NCBI GenBank assembly: GCA_038874475.1
Contig: JAVZCJ010000004.1
Coordinates: forward strand, 48,127-72,126
Length of the DNA: 24,000 bases
Source of the DNA: Nitrososphaerota archaeon
GTDB taxonomy: Archaea > Thermoproteota > Nitrososphaeria_A > Caldarchaeales > JAVZCJ01
Direction of reading: 5' to 3'
The notes under the pieces were generated by a model, which saw only the letters and a program-made list of their open reading frames with translations, made no database searches and was not told where the DNA came from. Positions 725-19,023 of the stretch are shown here, in pieces. Both the position numbers and the translations under genes were made by a program. Each line of letters opens with the position of its first letter. Position 1 is the first letter of the stretch.

Positions 725-952
725 TCATTTAACCTCCACATATATTTCATATACATCTCCATTCTTCTCAATTTTTAAAATATTATGCCCTACATTAGAA
801 GCCCATTCTTCTATATCAGAAGGAGCAGCTGGATCTGTAGCTAAGAGCTTAATTATTTGACCCGTTTTTGCTTTACTAATTGCTTCAACTAATGCTAATA
901 AAGGCCCTGGACAAAACTTAAATCTTGCATCAATTACTAAATCTACTTTCAT
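725..952 (-). CDS. tusA: TusA/SirA-family sulfurtransferase
   Basis: The 75-aa product has DARFKFCPGPLL, matching the TusA Cys-Pro-x-Pro active-site motif. The size is typical for the family. The gene sits between a DsrE-like gene and a cysteine desulfurase gene on the same strand. Confidence 0.85.
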   Translation of the reverse strand: MKVDLVIDARFKFCPGPLLALVEAISKAKTGQIIKLLATDPAAPSDIEEWASNVGHNILKIEKNGDVYEIYVEVK

Positions 953-968
953 AATTAATCTACTTTAT

Positions 969-1379
969 TTAAGAAATAAATAAGTTTACTTCAGAATCTT
1001 TAGCTTTGGATAGAAAAGTTGGAGCACCAACTATATTGTCTACAAAATCTTCAAGATTTCCTTTATTAATTCCAAGCAGTTCCATAGTAGTTGAACAAGC
1101 ATAGATTTTAAGTTTACCAGTATTTTTAAAAGATTTAATCATATTTTTCCATTCTGGAATTTTACCTAATTCTATCATTTTTATTAAAGATTCTTTATAT
1201 TCATTATAGTCTAAGCTTACATTTTTAGTTTCATATCCTTTCTTTAAAGCTAGTAAGCCCCAAAAAGTGAAAAATATTTCAGCATCCCATCCCATAGCAA
1301 CAGAACTAGTTGCAAGTATTATTGCTGGATAAATTTTATCTATTCTTTCAGAAGCTAATATGATAGATATTTTAGGCAT
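969..1379 (-). CDS. DsrE/DsrF-like (DrsE_2 / COG2210-type) sulfur-relay protein
   Basis: The 136-aa product matches the DsrE2-like pattern: KISIILAS...YPAIILA...AMGWD..IFFTFWGL..LKKG...KIYACSTTMELLGI...IVGAPTFL. The conserved Cys lies in YACS. It is the first gene of the dsrE-tusA-desulfurase array. Confidence 0.8.
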   Translation of the reverse strand: MPKISIILASERIDKIYPAIILATSSVAMGWDAEIFFTFWGLLALKKGYETKNVSLDYNEYKESLIKMIELGKIPEWKNMIKSFKNTGKLKIYACSTTMELLGINKGNLEDFVDNIVGAPTFLSKAKDSEVNLFIS

Positions 1380-1579: not shown

Positions 1580-2185
1580 TTACTTCTTAGCTTCTTTTCT
1601 GTAAATAATTGAAGCTGCTAAACAGAGCAAACCTGAGAGCAAAGCTATCCAAAACCTAAATGTAAATTGAGATAAAACTTTGATCTTTAAGGTAGCATCA
1701 ATATACAATATTGGATAAAGATTTATAGTTAGAGATTGATTTGAATATGGCATTAATGCGTCTTTTAAGTTTGGTGAAACTTGAGATATGATTGGTATGA
1801 ATTGTTGTACTGAAGATATTATTACAATAATGCCGATCAAGATTATAACAATAAATACTACAGGAATTGTGAATGGTCTGAGATTGAAGAGCCTTCGTGA
1901 CCATGTTTTATTATATAACAATGAACCAACAATTATTGTAATCGATCCAATTATAGCGAGCAATCTTTCACATAAGAATAATCCTATCATAAAAGGTGGC
2001 GGCTTAATGAGTTCCAAACCTAAAAGCTCAAACTTAAAATCAAATGGAGAAAGCCCAATGTATAGGAAAGGTTTAGAAATTTCACCTCCAATAAATTCCC
2101 ACCAAGAACCACCAACTATAGATATTATTAGAAAAATAATTCCACTGATTAAATAGAGAATTCTAGATTTCTTCATTTTTCTCAC
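1580..2185 (-). CDS. Polytopic membrane protein, unknown function
   Basis: The 201-aa ORF has about 5-6 long hydrophobic segments and K/R-rich termini. Its ATG overlaps the stop of the upstream gene by 4 nt (2182-2185), which implies co-translation. Confidence 0.6.
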   Translation of the reverse strand: MRKMKKSRILYLISGIIFLIISIVGGSWWEFIGGEISKPFLYIGLSPFDFKFELLGLELIKPPPFMIGLFLCERLLAIIGSITIIVGSLLYNKTWSRRLFNLRPFTIPVVFIVIILIGIIVIISSVQQFIPIISQVSPNLKDALMPYSNQSLTINLYPILYIDATLKIKVLSQFTFRFWIALLSGLLCLAASIIYRKEAKK

Positions 2186-2694
2186 CTTGAAAAACTAAAA
2201 TTATTTAAAGAGAAATCGAGTGGAATTTCGATTAAATTTAAGACCAAAGTAGCGCTCCCTGAAAGATTAACAGGAGATCCTTGTGTGAATATCATTATAA
2301 AGTCTTCGACAGACCCTTTTTCTAATGAGAACAAAAATTGTACGCTTTCTTCCTCATTAGGTTCTAAAATAAATGGTGCTTGAAGAATTACTTTTCCATC
2401 AATATTTGATGAAGGAACGATTATTCTCACGTATAATTTATTTAAGCCAACTCTAGTATTCCCGCTATTAAACAATTTAACATTTAGTAAGTATTTTCCA
2501 TCTACAGCAAGATGCTCTATTGAGATTATGTGAATTGAACTTGGGTCAAATGATGGAAATTCTTGAGTTGAAATTAAATCTGGCATAACGAAATTTGTTA
2601 GAGATCCTGAAGTGAAATAGTAGAATGTTAAAGGTAATACAATTGCTATAATTGTAATAATTCTGAGCAACCATATTATAATTTTTTCACTCAT
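2182..2694 (-). CDS. N-terminally membrane-anchored beta-rich protein (possible LEA_2/WHy-like beta-sandwich), unknown function
   Basis: The 170-aa ORF has one N-terminal TM helix (IIIWLLRIITIIAIVLPLTFYYF). This is followed by alternating beta-strand-like sequence (LLNVKLFNSGNTRVGLNKLYVRIIV...FILEPNEEESVQFLFSL). The fold assignment is inference only. Confidence 0.55.
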   Translation of the reverse strand: MSEKIIIWLLRIITIIAIVLPLTFYYFTSGSLTNFVMPDLISTQEFPSFDPSSIHIISIEHLAVDGKYLLNVKLFNSGNTRVGLNKLYVRIIVPSSNIDGKVILQAPFILEPNEEESVQFLFSLEKGSVEDFIMIFTQGSPVNLSGSATLVLNLIEIPLDFSLNNFSFSR

Positions 2695-2826
2695 CTTTTT
2701 TAAATACTTAATGAAAACTTATAAACTTTTCGGAAAAATTTTTTAAGCTTTTACTATTGAGAGTCCAAAGTTTTTTAACTTATTTAATAACTCAAATTTA
2801 GCAAGTAATGAATTCTTTTTCCAATT

Positions 2827-3669
2827 TTATGTTTCCTGTATTACCTTTTTCCAATAATCGTTTAATTCATATACTTTTTCATCATCTCCAACTAAGCCTT
2901 CTTCAATCATTCTAAGCTTTACTACTTTAGGAGTAGGCATAGCTATATGTTTTTCTAAGATTGCAAGACGTTTATAATCTTTCAAAATTAATAATCTTAA
3001 TATTGTTTTACTTATATATTCAAGATGAGAACCACCTATTACTTCAAACCTTTTTGCATCAAAACCCAATTCTAGGTCTAATAATTCTTGTTTTTTCAAC
3101 ATTTTATTCCTTTCCCTATCTAAAAATGTTTTATATGCAGCACTTTTAGTCCAGGATACAAGAATGACAGGTACATCATATTTTATAGCTAAACTCATTA
3201 ATTTTCCAGATTGATATGCAAGCTTACCTTGTAATTCTCTAGCTTCACTTGCTAAAAAGGAAGTTTTGGCAGCTAATAGTTGTTTATGATATTGGTTTAC
3301 AAAACTATCAACTATAAAAGCTAGTGGCTGAAGTCCCTCATTTTTTATTATTTCTTCCCATTTATGAATAATAATTTTATGTTGTTCACTTAAGCTATCT
3401 ACACGAGTTATATACATGCGTTCCAAAATTGATTGATTAATATTAAGAGCCTTTGCCATTTGTAATAATCTAGATTCGTGAAAACCTTGTTCTGTATCTA
3501 AATAGAAAAATTCTCCCTCACAATTTTTAGATAAATTAAGTATTGTTTGAAGGATTATTGTTGTTTTTCCACTTCCAGGATCTCCATAAATAAGATTTAT
3601 TGCACTTGCTAAGAAACCTCCACCCATTAATTTATCTAAAATTTTACAACCAGTAGAAATATACCTCAT
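2827..3669 (-). CDS. RecA-superfamily ATPase, RadA paralog / KaiC-like (RadB/aRadC-type)
   Basis: The N-terminus ISTGCKILDKLMGGGFLASAINLIYGDPGSGKTTIILQ gives the RadA/RadB-type entry motif plus Walker A (GSGKT). Walker B is LAFIVDSF. The later IGGSHLEYISKTILRL block is typical of RadA paralogs. Its start overlaps the stop of the upstream 697-aa gene by 4 nt. Confidence 0.8.
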   Translation of the reverse strand: MRYISTGCKILDKLMGGGFLASAINLIYGDPGSGKTTIILQTILNLSKNCEGEFFYLDTEQGFHESRLLQMAKALNINQSILERMYITRVDSLSEQHKIIIHKWEEIIKNEGLQPLAFIVDSFVNQYHKQLLAAKTSFLASEARELQGKLAYQSGKLMSLAIKYDVPVILVSWTKSAAYKTFLDRERNKMLKKQELLDLELGFDAKRFEVIGGSHLEYISKTILRLLILKDYKRLAILEKHIAMPTPKVVKLRMIEEGLVGDDEKVYELNDYWKKVIQET

Positions 3670-5759
3670 CTCTCTCCCTTCCTTAAAATACTCATTAAGA
3701 CATTCTTTGCAATTTTTAATGCTCTTTCAGCTTCTTTTTCTCCTATGCTTAAGTCTGCTTTTTCAGCTTTATTCTTTATTTCTTCTAACCATTCAATATC
3801 CTCCATTTCTATTGGTTTTAGGCCTTCAATACATAAAGTTTCATACAATGCTTTAAATTTTTTCCATCTAGTTTTTTCTGGATTTGAAATTAATAATATC
3901 ATCACATGCCTAACTAGATTATAACTTAAAATAATTGATTGGCACCATTCTTGATGTAAAAATTTCTTCTCTATTTCGATTAATTTTTTAACAAGTTTTT
4001 CGTTAATTTTTAAATAAATTTCTTCTTCTTTAATATCTTCTTTCTTTTTTATAAAATTCCTTTCTTCCCATTCATTAATTGCAATAATTCCCTTTTCAGT
4101 TATTTCTATTTTTTCTTCATCATCTGAAGAAATTTTCAAATATTTTTTATCGATAAGTTCTTTAATCAATTCTCTTATATCATTTAATTCATATTTTTCT
4201 GAAAGATATGCTTGAATTGTTGCTATATTTACATTTTTTAATTGAAACATAAGCTTCATAATATTATATGCAACTTCACTTTTATTAAGGAAATCTTTTT
4301 TAAGAGTTGTAACATTTTCTCCTATTTCTTTTTCAAGTACATTTTCCATGTCTTTATCAATATCTATATTAAAATCTATTATAGGTGTAAGCATTAGAAA
4401 AGTTTTCATACCTTCATGTGTCATTACTTTCACAATACTTTCTTGAGGTGAAAGTTTTAATATAAAATTGTCTCCTTCTCTTCCTAATGCAAATACTTTA
4501 GATATTTCATTTGCAATATATGGATCTTCAATAGCTGTTATTATTAAATTTGGAGTTATACTATAAGCATAATTTGCTATCCATGTTGCAGAAGTATGCA
4601 ATAATAAACTAATATTCTTTGATGCTTCTTTAAGCATGTACATCAATCTTTCCATTACAGGTCTATAATCATATGGTAAAAGATGTATTTGGGGTAAAAG
4701 GTTTTGTAATTCATCTATAACTATAAGAATCTTTTCTTTCTTCCTTTTTAAAACTTGATGCAAAACACCTATAAACAATATTAGAAGGAAAGTTTTTTGT
4801 TCCCTATCTATTCCGCCTACTCTTAAGCATATTATTTCGCCTCTTTTTGGTAAAAAGTTTAAAATATTTTTTCCCTCATCAGAAAAAATTTTTGTTAATA
4901 AAAGCTTTTTAATATCTGCTTTTAAAATATCTGCTCTTCTCTTTTCAAAAAATCTATTTAAACCATCACTCCATAAATTTACTTGATCAACTCTTAATAT
5001 ATTTTCATATTCATATTGATTATAAAAGAAATCTGCTAATAAGCTTGCTTCTTCAATATCCAATGTGCATGCAACAGAAATGGCCATTGCTAAAATATTT
5101 GTCCAAATTTTTAAAGGTAATGGTTTCGCATCCATTGGATTAATTAAAGTATCAATACCAATATTATAAACCTTAGTTGAGGTAAAATTCTTAGGAACTC
5201 CAATGATATTAGATGAATCAAAAATAATTATTCCATTTTCTTTCATAGCAGCTTCTTTGATTATTTTACGCATAATGTTTAATCCATAAGATCCAAAAAT
5301 TGTTATGCCTCTTTCAAGATTTTCAAAATTAATTCCTGTTTTTGAAAAATATCCAAAAAAAGATTTGCCAATCCATTTATACCCTAAAATTATATCTGCT
5401 TTGATTTTATTATTAGAAGAAAAATTATTCATTTCTAAACTATCTTTAATAAATTTATTAATAATTTGCATTCTATTTTTTGAAAATAAGCTAGATATGA
5501 AAAGAGCTATTTTAAATGAAAAAATAAATGGTGATTTAAAAAAGTTTGCTATACTTTTTCTAATTCTTTTTGATATGAATGATAAAATTGCTATTATTGG
5601 TAATAAAAAAATTATGATTGTTAAGAAAGGAATAAACAATATAAAAATGAAAATTATTAAAAATATTGTAGTAAAAGGTAACATTTTTCCTATGAAATTT
5701 ATACTTTCTTCATCTAAAATTGTATCAAATTTTTCTCTTGATAAACTCTTTCCCATCAA
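3666..5759 (-). CDS. Membrane-anchored HerA/VirB4/FtsK-superfamily ATPase homolog with degenerate Walker A, plus C-terminal wHTH-like and helical domains
   Basis: Residues ~25-95 contain hydrophobic TM helices. The HerA-like core runs LERGITIFGSYGLNIMRKII (P-loop position, no GK[ST]), then LINPMD, then KILIVIDELQNLLP (Walker B, hhhhDE), then ISLLLHTSATW...NLIITAIEDPY. Residues ~495-565 look like a winged helix (ATIQAYLSEKYELNDIRELIKELIDKKYLKI...ITEKGIIAINEW). The first codon in the track is TTG (5759), but ATG at 5756 is the more likely start. Confidence 0.7.
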   Translation of the reverse strand: MMGKSLSREKFDTILDEESINFIGKMLPFTTIFLIIFIFILFIPFLTIIIFLLPIIAILSFISKRIRKSIANFFKSPFIFSFKIALFISSLFSKNRMQIINKFIKDSLEMNNFSSNNKIKADIILGYKWIGKSFFGYFSKTGINFENLERGITIFGSYGLNIMRKIIKEAAMKENGIIIFDSSNIIGVPKNFTSTKVYNIGIDTLINPMDAKPLPLKIWTNILAMAISVACTLDIEEASLLADFFYNQYEYENILRVDQVNLWSDGLNRFFEKRRADILKADIKKLLLTKIFSDEGKNILNFLPKRGEIICLRVGGIDREQKTFLLILFIGVLHQVLKRKKEKILIVIDELQNLLPQIHLLPYDYRPVMERLMYMLKEASKNISLLLHTSATWIANYAYSITPNLIITAIEDPYIANEISKVFALGREGDNFILKLSPQESIVKVMTHEGMKTFLMLTPIIDFNIDIDKDMENVLEKEIGENVTTLKKDFLNKSEVAYNIMKLMFQLKNVNIATIQAYLSEKYELNDIRELIKELIDKKYLKISSDDEEKIEITEKGIIAINEWEERNFIKKKEDIKEEEIYLKINEKLVKKLIEIEKKFLHQEWCQSIILSYNLVRHVMILLISNPEKTRWKKFKALYETLCIEGLKPIEMEDIEWLEEIKNKAEKADLSIGEKEAERALKIAKNVLMSILRKGER

Positions 5760-5889
5760 TTTTTCATTAATATTTCTAAGATTTATTCATATTGTAAAAC
5801 ATTTTTTGAAAAATTAGCTTAACTCTTCTTAAAAATTGTTAAAAAAGGAATATTTTTAATTAATTTATTTTAATTTTTCTTAACAATCC

Positions 5890-6342
5890 TTAACTTTTCT
5901 TAAATTTGCCTTTTAACCATAAAGCAAATATCCATAATGGAAATGCGATGATAAGCCCACCTATTATTCTTAAAGGCATGCTTTTTTCTATAGCGCTATA
6001 AATTGTATAAAGAAATATCGCCATTCCTATGAATATAAGAGCATATATTATTGTTTTTTCTAAAATATTTTTTATTTCAATTTTATGTTTAATTTCAATA
6101 CCTTTTATTTCTTCATGTTTTTCTTCAGGAATTTTTGATAAACAAAAAACAACTTTATTCTCAATTCTCTTTTTTACAATAACCCCTTTTGAAAGCAATC
6201 TATTAATCCTTACATAAATTGAAGGTTTTGAAACATTTAAAGCTAAACTTAATTCTGCTGCACTCATAGGTTTATTTTCTAAAAGCTTAATTATTTTTAC
6301 TTCTAAATCATCAATTATTCTATTTTTCTCTTCTGCATTCAT
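5890..6342 (-). CDS. Membrane-anchored winged-helix (MarR/ArsR-like) DNA-binding protein
   Basis: The N-terminal part is wHTH-like: LEVKIIKLLENKPMSAAELSLALNVSKPSIYVRINRLLSKGVIVKK. The C-terminal ~55 aa form two hydrophobic helices (IIYALIFIGMAIFLYTIY..., IIGGLIIAFPLWIFALWL). Confidence 0.7.
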   Translation of the reverse strand: MNAEEKNRIIDDLEVKIIKLLENKPMSAAELSLALNVSKPSIYVRINRLLSKGVIVKKRIENKVVFCLSKIPEEKHEEIKGIEIKHKIEIKNILEKTIIYALIFIGMAIFLYTIYSAIEKSMPLRIIGGLIIAFPLWIFALWLKGKFKKS

Positions 6343-6420
6343 CTATTAATAATATTTTCTCATAAAATAAATAATTATAAATAGAAATATTTTTAAGGAG
6401 AAAATAATAATTCTAAATTA

Positions 6421-6711
6421 ATGGAAATGTCTAATGAAGAAATAAAAAATAATATTGTAGCTGTAGGTCATAAACCAATAGATCGCTATATTACAGCATG
6501 CATAACCTTGTTTAATGAAGGGAAAAAAGAAGTTATTTTTAGAGCAAGAGGGAAAGCAATTCCAAAATGCATAGATGTTGTTGAATCTCTTCGTAAAAGC
6601 TTTATGAAAGATGCTATTATTAAGAGGATTTCTATTGGAAGTGATGAAAAAATATTAGAAAATGGAGGAAAAAAATATATTAGCTATATAGAAATCGTAG
6701 TTACGCATTAA
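6421..6711 (+). CDS. albA: Alba (Sac10b family) DNA/RNA-binding chromatin protein
   Basis: The 96-aa product has NIVAVGHKPIDRYITACITLFNEGKKEVIFRARGKAIPKCIDVVESLR, which matches the Alba family signature (G-K-K-P-V-M-x-Y-V ... ARG-x-AI ... VDV-x-E). Confidence 0.9.
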   Translation: MEMSNEEIKNNIVAVGHKPIDRYITACITLFNEGKKEVIFRARGKAIPKCIDVVESLRKSFMKDAIIKRISIGSDEKILENGGKKYISYIEIVVTH

Positions 6712-8129: not shown

Positions 8130-9545
8130 CTATTTAATAATCTCAATTACACTATCTGAAGTAACTTCTATTTCAAAATCTTTAAATCTCCTTTTTATAT
8201 TAACCCATTTAAATTTAATTTTCTCTCCTATATTTATTTGATTTATTTTTAAAGCATTATCGTGCCAAGCAATACCACTAATTATTTTCTCATTTCCAGA
8301 AATCCAGAAATAAATTTTTTCAACTAATCCATATTTTGTTTCAACTAATGTTAAAGGAGATTTTGATTTTAAAAAACCATATATAATGATATCTTTTTCT
8401 TCTTTAATAATATCATCTGGATTGTATTCCTTTATTTTATAATATGGAATATCTTCTATATCTTTTTTAAGAATCAAATAATCTTTCTCTTTCTCAATAA
8501 TGATTTCTTCTCTATCACCTTTAATATTCTTTATTCCCCTTTTTATAACAATAATATCATCTTTATTAATATCTAAATTTTTTGTTAAAAAGCATTTAAT
8601 TCTTACAATTTTATTTCCATCATAACCAAGAATACTTTTAAAATTCATTCCACGATCAATTATTTCAATAATTCTCAATTTTAAATTATTAACTATATCA
8701 TATTTTTCTTCTTTCTCTTCTTCTATTTTATTTTTATTATCAATTTTTATTATCCATGTATTCTTAGTTGTATGTACTTCAGATTTTTTTAATCTCACTT
8801 CAAATAAAATTACTTCATCGTTTATCTCTATATCATTAAATATATCTACTTTATCTCTCCATGCAACCAATTTTGTTTCATATGAATTATCTACTATAAT
8901 TGCTTCCTTTACATTTACTATTTCATTTTTTATATTAACACTTCTTAAGGGTTCAATATATTTGATTTTACATTTAATGTCAAAAACCCCTTCTTTATCT
9001 ATGACTTCTTTAAGTGGAAGAATATGATACAATACATCTGGTTGTTCATAATCTTCTTCCAATTTTTCTATTTTACCATTCTTTCCTATATTTAATTCTA
9101 ATCTATCAAACCTTTGTTTTACATATCCCCCTTCTATTTTAATAATGTCTCCAGGCTTAAGATTTAATTTTTCTACATTTAAAGCATTCTCATTCCATAA
9201 AATTAAATTAATTTTTCCTGTTTTATCTCCAATTTTCCCAAAAATATATGAGTGTTGGCCAACTTTTTTTAAAGGAGTTATAAAAAGTACTCTTCCAATT
9301 ATTGCAACATTTTTTAATCCTGAGACTAAATCTATTATTCTTGTTGTTAAAGTTTCTTTTTCAAGATTTTCAATATTATAATCTGGAAAGATATTTAGTT
9401 CTTCAGCTAAGATGAGTGCTGCTCCAAGTTTATTAAGAAAACGACTTTCTTTAATTTTTTCTTCTATTTTCTTCTCTATTTCTTCCCTTGTTAAATCTTT
9501 TCTTTTACTAATTATTAAAGAAATAATTTCTTCATAATTTTTCAT
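8130..9545 (-). CDS. RPA-like single-stranded DNA-binding protein with multiple OB folds
   Basis: The N-terminal helical segment ends in LGAALILAEELNI, as in archaeal RPA. It is followed by repeated OB-fold patterns, for example VAIIGRVLFITPLKK...GKIGDKTGKINLILWNENA...LKPGDIIKIEGGYVK. There is no zinc-finger Cys cluster. Confidence 0.7.
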   Translation of the reverse strand: MKNYEEIISLIISKRKDLTREEIEKKIEEKIKESRFLNKLGAALILAEELNIFPDYNIENLEKETLTTRIIDLVSGLKNVAIIGRVLFITPLKKVGQHSYIFGKIGDKTGKINLILWNENALNVEKLNLKPGDIIKIEGGYVKQRFDRLELNIGKNGKIEKLEEDYEQPDVLYHILPLKEVIDKEGVFDIKCKIKYIEPLRSVNIKNEIVNVKEAIIVDNSYETKLVAWRDKVDIFNDIEINDEVILFEVRLKKSEVHTTKNTWIIKIDNKNKIEEEKEEKYDIVNNLKLRIIEIIDRGMNFKSILGYDGNKIVRIKCFLTKNLDINKDDIIVIKRGIKNIKGDREEIIIEKEKDYLILKKDIEDIPYYKIKEYNPDDIIKEEKDIIIYGFLKSKSPLTLVETKYGLVEKIYFWISGNEKIISGIAWHDNALKINQINIGEKIKFKWVNIKRRFKDFEIEVTSDSVIEIIK

Positions 9546-9572
9546 TCTGCTTATCCTATTTACTATATTTAT

Positions 9573-9692
9573 TTAAGCTTCTTCTTCTCCTCTAGAAGTA
9601 TAGAAAATATATATGATTATTAATATAAAAACTAAAACAATTAATCCATATAAACCAAAGTAAGCAGTATTAAAAAAATCGCTTATTGACAT
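9573..9692 (-). CDS. Possible small (39 aa) single-pass membrane protein
   Basis: This ORF is not in the track. By hand it reads MSISDFFNTAYFGLYGLIVLVFILIIIYIFYTSRGEEEA. It has one TM helix and an SD-like GAGATGA 7 nt upstream. It lies in the gap between the SWIM and RPA-like genes on the same strand. Short ORFs arise easily in AT-rich DNA. Confidence 0.3.
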   Translation of the reverse strand: MSISDFFNTAYFGLYGLIVLVFILIIIYIFYTSRGEEEA

Positions 9693-9724
9693 ATTTTTTC
9701 ATCTCTTTTTCATTATATAGAAAA

Positions 9725-10066
9725 TTATGATCTCCACTCCTTAATTAATTTTTCATACCATGTATCTTCTTCTATTATTTCTTCGTATAGATTATTTTTT
9801 AAAGCTATTTTAACTGCTAAAATATGATAGCAAAAATCATATTTTTTATCTAAAACATGAAAGAAAAAATCATTACATGAACAAAAATTAACTTCTGGTA
9901 AAACAAGATAATCTCGCGTATATCCAACTACTATCCAAAAACTAATATTACTAGGCTTAAAAATATATTTCTTTACTCTTTTCTCTTTAACACATTTAAT
10001 TGCTTCAATATATTTTTCTTCATACTTTTTCTTTAATTCTTCTGGGGCGCTTCTTTCTTCCTCCAT
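9725..10066 (-). CDS. SWIM-type zinc-finger protein
   Basis: FCSCNDFFFHVLDKKYDFCYHILAV fits the SWIM CxCx(n)CxH signature. The product is 113 aa and consists of that single domain. Confidence 0.75.
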   Translation of the reverse strand: MEEERSAPEELKKKYEEKYIEAIKCVKEKRVKKYIFKPSNISFWIVVGYTRDYLVLPEVNFCSCNDFFFHVLDKKYDFCYHILAVKIALKNNLYEEIIEEDTWYEKLIKEWRS

Positions 10067-17106: not shown

Positions 17107-17844
17107 ATGGAAATAGTATTATCGGAAAGAACAAATAGGAAAGATAAATATGAAGTTTTAAAAAAATTAATGGAAGAAATTAAAGAAAAATATTCAAAAA
17201 CAGATGTTGAAATAAAAAATATGTTTTTTAATGAAGATGGATGGCTAATAATAGATGTAAGTGAAGAAAAATTTTTCATAAATACTATAAATAAATTAAC
17301 TATTTTTCCTCTTACAGTTTTTAATAAACAATTTCTAATAACTGGGAAAATAGAAAATGTTAAAAATGATCATATAAGAATAATTTTTCCAAATGAGAAA
17401 GGAGAGACTTCCATATTAGATATTAAAATAAAAAATTTAATAAGAAAAATTGGTATTTCTAAAATAGATTTTAATAATTCTTTGAAAGAAATGCTTCATA
17501 TAAAAAAATTATCACCTATCCATGTTTATCTAGGAAGAGAGAAAAATATATCGTATTATCATGCAAATATGATTAATGAATGGTATAAGAAAGGGCTTAG
17601 TGCAGTAAATGTAAATGATGTAACAATGACAGAACTGAAAAATGTTATTTCTGAAAGAAATCTTGATAAAGTTATAATTAAAATTTATCCATTAACAATA
17701 TTATCATATAGATTAGTTTTAAGAATAGGAGCTACACCAGAAGTAGTAGAAAATGAAATAAAGAAAAGCTTTGAAGAAATTGGAATAGATATTGTTACAT
17801 CAAGCTTTAATTGGAGAAAGGCAATTTCAATTTTTTCTTATTAA
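17107..17844 (+). CDS. Hypothetical protein, probably co-transcribed with tfe
   Basis: The 245-aa ORF has its ATG 2 nt after the tfe stop codon. The composition looks coding-like, and I recognise no motif with confidence. Confidence 0.6.
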   Translation: MEIVLSERTNRKDKYEVLKKLMEEIKEKYSKTDVEIKNMFFNEDGWLIIDVSEEKFFINTINKLTIFPLTVFNKQFLITGKIENVKNDHIRIIFPNEKGETSILDIKIKNLIRKIGISKIDFNNSLKEMLHIKKLSPIHVYLGREKNISYYHANMINEWYKKGLSAVNVNDVTMTELKNVISERNLDKVIIKIYPLTILSYRLVLRIGATPEVVENEIKKSFEEIGIDIVTSSFNWRKAISIFSY

Positions 17845-18597: not shown

Positions 18598-19023
18598 TTA
18601 ATATAAGCTTAATGGTTCAATTCTTTTAATAAAATCAACTTTGTCAAGTTCTTTATCAGCTGATATTATTTCATGTATCATATTTAATTCCATAGAAGCT
18701 AAATGAATATAATCAATTCCACTTATTCTATATCTATATTCAGAAGCTCTTCTTATTATGGCAAAATTAAGCTCTATCCATTTTATTGGCAAAGATAAGA
18801 TGGCATCTATATTCTTTTTTATATCAAGCTCTTTTTCTTTTCTCTCTTTTAAAATTTCATTTATTTTCTTTAGAACATTTACAATTTCGACTAAAACCAA
18901 TATTGAAGCATAAGCCTCTAATTTCTTTTTTTCAATATTCTCTAAAATTTTCTTACAAACTTCTCCATATTTTGGATGATTTTCTATAGCATAAATAAAA
19001 ATATTTGTATCAATATATTTCAT
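18598..19023 (-). CDS. vapC: PIN-domain ribonuclease toxin VapC
   Basis: MKYIDTNIFIYA carries the first PIN acidic residue (IDTN). Further acidic positions follow (LVLVEIVN, ISADKELD). The product is 141 aa. Its start overlaps the stop of the upstream antitoxin gene by 4 nt. Confidence 0.85.
   Translation of the reverse strand: MKYIDTNIFIYAIENHPKYGEVCKKILENIEKKKLEAYASILVLVEIVNVLKKINEILKERKEKELDIKKNIDAILSLPIKWIELNFAIIRRASEYRYRISGIDYIHLASMELNMIHEIISADKELDKVDFIKRIEPLSLY

Follow-up and report, generated by a model that had tools for sequence, protein, structure and literature searches.

In several described systems, a protein of the HerA fold is encoded beside a second enzyme, as in the complexes HerA-NurA, HerA-Sir2 ("Nezha") and DUF4297-HerA. 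In TrwB/VirD4, VirB4 and CedB/CedD, an N-terminal anchor of two transmembrane (TM) segments is followed by a P-loop domain of the HerA/FtsK superfamily, and FtsK comprises an N-terminal TM segment, a motor fold of the same superfamily and a C-terminal winged-helix DNA-binding domain (FtsK gamma). In the Ced system, two HerA/VirD4-like ATPases, CedB and CedD, cooperate at the membrane in DNA import, together with membrane proteins; it has been described in Sulfolobales, Desulfurococcales and Acidilobales, and Nitrososphaeria and Bathyarchaeia are not among the lineages reported (PMC11868833, PMC11823120). The euryarchaeal RadA paralogue RadB retains the Rad51/RecA core with intact Walker A and B motifs and has no N-terminal helix-hairpin-helix (HhH) domain. 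HerA/FtsK-superfamily proteins and RadA paralogues are each central to archaeal DNA transactions. The stretch analysed in the present study (hereafter the window) comprises 24,000 nucleotides (nt) of contig JAVZCJ010000004.1 from a Nitrososphaerota archaeon; it is an archaeal chromosome segment, very AT-rich, with about 25% guanine plus cytosine (GC). It carries a two-gene operon, g2-g3, which is related both to modules of a HerA scaffold with a partner and to RadA paralogues, kinds that are already known. The operon is conserved and joins a membrane-anchored HerA-type scaffold (g2), predicted to be catalytically dead, to a live-looking RadB-like ATPase (g3), a combination that is new within the searches made. 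A pairing of a pseudo-HerA with a RadB-like protein is not described in Pfam, NCBIfam, PADLOC, PHROGs, the PDB or, in a limited search, the literature; this agrees with the preliminary description of the locus, which knew no named system with a membrane-tethered HerA-like protein and a recombinase-family ATPase.

The two core genes and their features are as follows (aa, amino acids; wHTH, winged helix-turn-helix).

3666-5759, minus strand: g2, core component 1, 697 aa (696 aa from the ATG at 5756)
5559-5705, minus strand: N-terminal TM hairpin of g2, residues ~19-67, hydropathy peak 3.35
5271-5294, minus strand: degenerate Walker A position of g2, GSYGLNIM, residues 156-163, GK[ST] tripeptide missing
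4710-4730, minus strand: Walker-B-like strand of g2, ILIVIDE, residues 344-350, opposite the Walker B strand in hhalign
4050-4307, minus strand: wHTH domain of g2, residues ~485-570, matched by Foldseek to CggR and MarR-family wHTH
3684-4028, minus strand: C-terminal HEPN-fold helical domain of g2, residues ~578-692, matched by Foldseek to HEPN proteins
2827-3669, minus strand: g3, core component 2, 280 aa, RadB-like ATPase with a RecA/Rad51 core
3559-3585, minus strand: Walker A of g3, GDPGSGKTT, residues 29-37, intact
3484-3504, minus strand: DTE.G motif of g3
3304-3321, minus strand: Walker B of g3, AFIVDS, residues 117-122
3666-3669, minus strand: ATGA stop/start overlap of g2 and g3, with the Shine-Dalgarno-like purine-rich GGAAGGGAGAGAG ahead

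The order of domains in g2 is two TM segments, a pseudo-HerA P-loop domain similar to TrwB and other type IV coupling proteins (T4CP), a wHTH domain and an inactive HEPN-fold tail. As was found by hhalign, the family profile is related to a DUF87/HerA protein (probability 84%, E 7.6e-6, 308 columns). A Foldseek search with a low-confidence model of full-length g2 likewise pointed to a fold of the HerA/TrwB/VirB4 type: the best PDB matches were HerA-NurA 9x1m, TrwB 1gl7 and VirB4/TrwK 7o42 (E 2.6e-4 to 5e-3), and with the HerA-Sir2 and DUF4297-HerA complexes among the other matches (8uae, 8zir) the HerA-partner complexes represent the best fold relatives of g2. A weak HerA_C match was also found in the g2 homologue of locus L006 (related loci are designated by L numbers). 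The TM hairpin is common to the homologues of L001/L017, L002 and L006. The protein has no match in Pfam or NCBIfam, and its family is very small: a search of 1.84 billion representative proteins at E<=1e-3 yielded 12 clusters. A profile match of residues 96-147 to a designer pentatricopeptide repeat protein in the PDB was rejected as spurious, being short and repeat-like.

A separate model of the last 220 residues of g2 was good (predicted local distance difference test, pLDDT, 84) and showed a wHTH of the MarR/CggR type and, after it, a bundle of helices. This bundle has the HEPN fold, as revealed by the Foldseek matches 2hsb (TMt 0.62), 1wol, 1ufb, 1o3u and 7ae8 (probability 0.7-1.0, E 0.08-0.5); the Pfam HEPN model matched the tail of a 34%-identical homologue, P0009, with E 0.001 and 19.7 bits, under the 22-bit cut-off. 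The catalytic Rx4-6H motif is not conserved in the family alignment of the tail, where KNKAEKAD, SRRAKVSD, AARKGRV and RRYAKYG are found. The preliminary description had recognised the TM hairpin, the HerA-type core and the wHTH; the degeneration of the P-loop and the HEPN-fold tail after the wHTH had escaped it. The domain order TM, motor fold and wHTH is the same as in FtsK/SpoIIIE. Unlike FtsK, which is an active translocase, g2 has the extra HEPN-fold tail and an obligatory RecA-family partner, and no FtsK structure was among its top 50 Foldseek matches.

The catalytic residues of the P-loop domain appear to be lost. In the hhalign alignment, GITIFGSYG---LNIM of g2 stands opposite hivvvGSAGVGKSnfv, with a three-residue gap facing GKS, and the canonical Walker A ([AG]x4GK[ST]) is present at the P-loop position in none of the seven family members compared. 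The Asp of Walker B is retained in most members (His in L002) and the residue after it varies in the family (E, D, E, E, S, S, C), the strings in homologues being VIDDLQ, VIHEFN, LIDEAH and MIDSAE, with VLDCAE in the 465-aa protein of L011. Neither the Walker A nor the catalytic Glu of HerA/FtsK-superfamily ATPases is thus conserved in the g2 family. Judging from these motifs, g2 is a catalytically dead pseudo-ATPase in which both the lysine of Walker A and the catalytic glutamate have disappeared, and because the lysine is missing it is not expected to be an active translocase of the CedB/VirB4 type. The string GYKWIGKS (window 5361-5387, residues 126-133) fits the Walker A regular expression, and a motif scan by itself would label g2 an active ATPase on its account; it was rejected as the Walker A of g2, since it lies upstream of the P-loop of the fold and is not conserved in homologues. 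Two residues, D364 and R366 (window 4653-4667, context LLPYDYRP), are invariant across the family, even at ~20% identity. They are candidates for a functional site, which might be an arginine finger acting on a partner ATPase.

Compared with the HerA-partner complexes, g2 differs by its membrane anchor, the loss of Walker A and the added wHTH and HEPN-fold domains. The protein encoded beside it is an ATPase of the RecA family, where HerA-NurA has a nuclease and HerA-Sir2 has Sir2, and no NurA is encoded nearby. Unlike in the T4CP and Ced ATPases, canonical ATP hydrolysis appears impossible for g2, and the pair is not accompanied by conserved pilins, a CedA-like channel or a relaxase. The protein was set apart from CedB and CedD by comparison with their descriptions, and it lacks the Walker A of an active CedB/CedD-like ATPase.

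Protein g3 is devoid of the N-terminal HhH domain and retains, like RadB, the Rad51/RecA core with intact Walker A and B motifs. The Pfam Rad51 model matched it with E 7.7e-15 and 55.3 bits, and the best PDB match of its profile was Thermococcus RadB (2cvf, E 2e-33), in two segments that bracket a conserved, family-specific insertion of ~25 aa at the L2 position. The best NCBIfam match was TIGR02237 RadB (E 1.7e-30), with 106.5 bits, below the equivalog cut-off of 172.4. The KaiC Pfam match was above its cut-off (32.2 vs 26.6 bits) and well under the 55.3 bits of Rad51; the NCBIfam KaiC models gave E 1e-5 to 1e-6 (3.8e-06) and FlaH/ArlH 5.6e-05. Assignment to the KaiC-like class failed, as the best match is not KaiC and the protein has a single domain. 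In the family alignment, G29, G32, G34, K35, T36 and T37 of Walker A, D58, T59 and E60 of the DTE.G motif and D121 and S122 of Walker B are invariant, and so are many further positions, in members down to 39% identity. It seems that g3 is an active-looking RadB-like paralogue that forms a small family of its own. Unlike RadB, it scores below the equivalog cut-off, carries the insertion at the L2 position and is always coupled to a g2-type gene; it occurs in metagenome-assembled genomes (MAGs) of Nitrososphaeria and Bathyarchaeia, while RadB belongs to Euryarchaeota. Of the first characterisation of g3 as a RadA paralogue or KaiC-like ATPase with an intact GSGKT, membership in the RecA superfamily and the intact motif were confirmed, and the protein proved RadB-like rather than KaiC. 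A Polyangia locus (L012) was rejected as not orthologous, its protein being 28% identical to g3 and without a g2-like neighbour.

The genes g2 and g3 overlap by a true ATGA, as had been described before, and the same overlap was found in L001, L017, L006 and L011. The two genes are adjacent in six archaeal lineages, Nitrososphaeria and Bathyarchaeia MAGs included, mostly with an overlap of 4-8 nt, over an identity span from 87% to ~20% for g2 and from 96% to ~39% for g3. A g2-type gene lies directly upstream of each g3-type orthologue whose upstream flank is on the contig, in genomes of 26-58% GC. As far as gene order can tell, the g2-g3 pair is invariant, and the functional unit is predicted to be a two-gene operon, not a set of five genes. 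It could be supposed that g3 is an ordinary housekeeping RadA paralogue placed by chance beside an unrelated membrane protein, as RadA paralogues are common in archaea. Such an origin is scarcely credible, given a g2-type gene that overlaps or nearly abuts g3 upstream in six lineages of widely different GC (26-58%) and a g3 that falls under the RadB equivalog cut-off into its own small family.

The related loci carry the pair in the following forms.

L001, L016 and L017 (GC ~57%): g2-type protein of 709-717 aa, 34% identity, two TM segments; g3-type protein of 300-303 aa, 57-58% identity, overlapping start
L002 and L003: g2-type protein of 699 aa; g3-type protein of 306 aa
L006, L007 and L010 (Bathyarchaeia): g2-type protein of 725 aa; g3-type protein of 289 aa; a divergent g1-like gene of 216 aa
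L004, L005 and L008: g2-type protein of 499-502 aa, without TM helices or HEPN tail; g3-type protein of 285-294 aa
L011 (Bathyarchaeota): g2-type protein of 465 aa, hhalign probability 99.7%; g3-type protein of 295 aa

In the L005/L008 group, a protein of 854-872 aa with 4-5 TM helices and a DUF87 domain is encoded just upstream of the pair. Its Walker A is intact in L005 (GSAGVGKS; 314-2932) and degenerate in the 50%-identical protein of L008 (GDDNAGKE; 3895-6459), which suggests that ATPase sites in this three-gene variant have been lost repeatedly. Two proteins are encoded upstream of the L011 pair, a wHTH protein of 144 aa, which is unrelated, and a TM protein of 601 aa; for the latter, no relation to either the g2 family or the DUF87 partners was detected. 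The TM-less g2 homologues of two lineages thus go with an extra upstream polytopic membrane protein, which is DUF87/HerA-like in one of them, so a membrane tether, whether in cis or in trans, is a conserved feature. The flanks of L001/L016/L017 contain an alanyl-tRNA synthetase gene and an opposite-strand amidohydrolase gene, with no g1, g4 or g5 (the other genes of the window locus, described below). In L002 and L003, a gene for an ERCC4-HhH2 (XPF-type) nuclease (L002:4446-5243, L003:4297-5094) overlaps the RadB-like gene by 4 nt, and at the genomic level this lineage alone ties the pair directly to DNA repair; PCNA is encoded ~4 kb downstream, and MNT/HEPN-type pairs lie on both sides of the locus. 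No member of the NurA, Mre11 or Rad50 families was found among the scanned window neighbours or the annotated related loci; the neighbours at L011 and L017, examined as translations only, were outside these scans. Among 185,579 species genomes scanned with a sequence pattern, at least three, all archaeal, proved to carry the g3 family.

The reading preferred here, with a rough probability of 45%, is that the pair forms a membrane-tethered DNA-handling complex of a dead g2 scaffold and a RadB-like g3 engine. In this complex, g2 would form oligomers on the cytoplasmic side of the membrane, in keeping with other members of the HerA superfamily; as a scaffold it would bind DNA by means of its wHTH and provide a docking site for g3. 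The sole ATP-driven, DNA-directed activity, be it binding, remodelling or pulling, would be supplied by g3, made in fixed proportion to g2 by translational coupling. The TM-less g2 homologues would be anchored by the separate polytopic membrane protein encoded just upstream. DNA is proposed as the substrate because g3 has the RadB/Rad51 core and because, in one lineage, the RadB-like gene is coupled to that of an XPF-type nuclease. Several points weigh against this reading. The XPF link is confined to that one lineage, and the g2-g3 contact, the oligomerisation and the DNA binding are steps that we infer. For full-length g2, the AlphaFold model is of poor quality (pLDDT 55) and its fold matches have template-modelling scores of 0.2-0.3. 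The family is very rare and patchy, so an accessory role, for example in defence, fits better than core repair; the HEPN fold, wHTH domains and HerA-like scaffolds are common in defence systems. Besides, RecA-family proteins of the KaiC/ArlH type serve in regulation rather than as enzymes of DNA, so the substrate may be something other than DNA. DNA handling, defence and signalling, the three functions first considered for this locus, are all possible.

More specifically, it is tentatively proposed, with considerable doubt, that a HerA/T4CP-type membrane ring which lost its own motor recruited a RecA-family (RadB-like) ATPase as its engine. This would be a hitherto undescribed archaeal machine, which may capture, import, anchor or recombine DNA at the membrane, and ring and recruited ATPase would then tie recombinase chemistry directly to a membrane DNA portal. 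If DNA is handled at the membrane, the pair would provide a new means of importing, tethering or repairing DNA in Nitrososphaeria and Bathyarchaeia, from which the described Ced and Ted systems are unreported. If it is a defence system, a RecA-family engine would be added to the theme of HerA-scaffold defence, and under either role the pair would be a clean case of a pseudo-ATPase kept by selection beside an active partner. In practice, work on it is limited to a very rare family known only from uncultured archaea (MAGs).

A role in defence against viruses or plasmids is the main rival reading and is considered rather unlikely. A HerA-like scaffold, as in the HerA-Sir2 or HerA-DUF4297 systems, would assemble a membrane effector or sensor, the wHTH or HEPN-fold domain would sense the nucleic acid of the invader and the RadB-like ATPase would act. 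The very rare, patchy distribution over TACK archaea would suit this role, and so would the modular, variable architecture with fusion, fission and accessory genes gained or lost, of which the DUF87 partner, its Walker A decayed in L008 and not in L005, is an instance. The HEPN fold on g2, the Foldseek matches to the HerA-Sir2 and DUF4297-HerA defence complexes and the two MNT/HEPN-type pairs flanking the L002 locus point the same way. However, PADLOC gave no system-specific match: the mad8 matches (E 4e-4 and 9e-8) were rejected as generic, since they cover the P-loop region only, and generic wHTH matches to Csa3/CARF models were also obtained. The HEPN tail is without the Rx4-6H RNase motif, and no obvious effector is apparent. 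The neighbours are housekeeping genes in the window and at most loci, where no restriction-modification (RM), CRISPR, integrase or transposase genes were seen, family annotation of the window genes included. Relatives of g2 were absent from the plasmid and phage records searched with tblastn, and both g2 and g3 from the viral contigs covered by pattern scans.

Upstream of the pair lies a further gene, g1, together with a spacer.

5890-6342, minus strand: g1, 150 aa, wHTH and C-terminal hairpin of two TM segments
5760-5889, minus strand: g1-g2 spacer, candidate promoter/operator of g2-g3
5880-5887 and 5835-5842: inverted repeat in the g1-g2 spacer, ATTGTTAA and TTAACAAT

The N-terminal wHTH of g1 (Pfam TrmB 2e-07, HTH_24 2e-06) and its two C-terminal hydrophobic helices agree with the earlier characterisation of this protein. 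A g1-like protein of 216 aa, with a wHTH, a linker and a 2-TM hairpin, is encoded beside the pair in Bathyarchaeia (L006) and is divergently transcribed; the two proteins share 40% identity over 43 aa (E 2e-07) and the hairpin sequence PLWI[FL]ALWL. No g1 homologue was found beside the pair in L017, L002 or L008, and the wHTH protein of L011 was rejected as a g1 homologue, being not homologous. As a g1-like gene adjoins the pair in one other lineage only, g1 is a facultative partner; it is probably a regulator or partner of the pair, a local regulator being the simplest case. The g1-g2 spacer is 89% conserved among relatives, above synonymous sites, and contains GTTAAG repeats (conserved stretch at window 5818-5887) besides the inverted repeat; g1 or the wHTH of g2 may use it as an operator.

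These observations bear on another reading, in which g3 is a nucleotide-dependent switch on a membrane scaffold, as ArlH is on ArlI, and controls the wHTH of g1 or g2 and gene expression. In the archaellum motor, ArlH is a small RecA/KaiC-type ATP-binding protein on ArlI, a larger oligomeric membrane P-loop protein (PMC8978795 and general knowledge). The KaiC Pfam match of g3 above the cut-off and the weak FlaH/ArlH matches are consistent with such a switch, as are the two membrane-anchored wHTH proteins, g1 and g2, the divergent g1-like gene in Bathyarchaeia, which is a typical regulator layout, the wHTH gene upstream in L011, and the inverted repeats and above-synonymous conservation of the g1-g2 spacer. 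Nevertheless, signalling as the main role is quite improbable. By E values, g3 is far nearer to RadB/RadA than to KaiC or FlaH (ArlH) and retains the whole Rad51 core, no sensor domain was detected, and most lineages are without a g1-like gene. Unlike g2, ArlI is an active ATPase of the secretion superfamily, and no archaellum genes are present here.

Downstream of the pair, two further membrane protein genes complete a row of five.

2182-2694, minus strand: g4, 170 aa, one N-terminal TM segment
1580-2185, minus strand: g5, 198-201 aa, membrane protein with ~4 TM segments, probable start ATG at 2176
2716-2731, minus strand: GAAAAGTTTATAAGTT, a block resembling a TFB-recognition element (BRE) and TATA box, ~30 nt upstream of g4, invariant in five relatives

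All five head-to-tail minus-strand open reading frames (ORFs) of the preliminary description are present exactly at 5890-6342, 3666-5759, 2827-3669, 2182-2694 and 1580-2185, and hydropathy bears out g4 as N-anchored (one TM segment) and g5 as polytopic (about four). All are under purifying selection, as judged from comparison with the 87-96%-identical relatives L009, L013 and L014 (dN/dS 0.04-0.37: g3, under strong constraint, 0.04, g2 and g5 ~0.2, g1 0.2-0.34, g4 0.26-0.37). The claim that they form one co-directional module had to be abandoned. The genes are not contiguous, with spacers of 130 nt between g1 and g2 and 132 nt between g3 and g4; g4 and g5 occur in near relatives only and g1 in one other lineage. 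Adjacency of orthologues, the decisive comparison and one that the preliminary description had set for its claim, was retained for g2-g3 in all lineages found, not for g4/g5 and mostly not for g1. The second overlap of 4 nt, between g4 and g5, requires a GTG start of g5. A start at the ATG located 9 nt further downstream fits g5 better: AGGTGA stands ahead of it, and in L009, a close relative, the longest ORF (198 aa) begins there. This makes the g4/g5 overlap doubtful.

It was not possible to find g4 outside L009 and L013-15 (69-74% identity); g4 and g5 together are 69-82% identical in near relatives, no homologue of either was found in the flanks of any distant pair locus, and neither has a family match in Pfam, NCBIfam, PADLOC or PHROGs. 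The g3-g4 spacer (window 2695-2826; L009:10844-11130, L013, L014, L015) ranges from 132 to ~290 nt with large indels, differing by up to ~160 nt among 87-96%-identical relatives. The invariant block GAAAAGTTTATAAGTT is most simply taken as a candidate separate promoter of g4-g5; a sigma-70 promoter/terminator scan was dropped, as it gave fewer sites than shuffles and its model is irrelevant for an archaeal host. In the preferred reading, g4-g5 is an unrelated, lineage-specific membrane gene pair outside the conserved core.

That all five products form one machine, either for DNA import in the manner of Ced/Ted or left over from conjugation, in which g4 and g5 would be channel or pilin-like parts, is very improbable. 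Such a machine would accord with the co-directional genes, whose order is kept in five close relatives, and with the two TM segments and HerA/T4CP-like domain of g2, which recall VirD4/TrwB. However, g4 and g5 are missing beside the pair in each lineage beyond ~87% identity and stand in the window behind a variable spacer and a separate conserved promoter-like block. To our knowledge, no RadA paralogue is known in Ced or in type IV secretion systems, Ced was described from other orders, and mobile-element genes were not found within the window. Since g4/g5 are not conserved, g1 is rare and g2 is without the Walker A lysine that a translocase needs, there is no support for dedicated membrane partners or for a machine of five parts like Ced.

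The remaining genes of the window are housekeeping genes, including those for TusA, DsrE, Alba, an aminotransferase, an RPA-like OB-fold protein, tRNA-Pro, a NrdD-like reductase, NAC, threonine synthase, HflX, TFE-alpha and NrpR. Directly downstream of g5, on the same strand, lies a sulfur-relay pair of TusA (75 aa) and a DsrE_2-family protein (136 aa) at window 725-1379, which likewise follows g5 in L009. On the other side, beyond Alba and the aminotransferase, the minus strand of window 8130-10066 encodes the OB-fold (RPA-like) protein of 471 aa together with a protein of 113 aa whose match to a SWIM zinc finger stays below threshold; these genes add to a loosely DNA-related neighbourhood. 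A PIN-domain (VapC-like) gene is located at window 18598-19023. A 245-aa ORF without a Pfam match (window 17107-17844) begins 3 nt past the TFE-alpha gene and could encode a lineage-specific partner of TFE-alpha.

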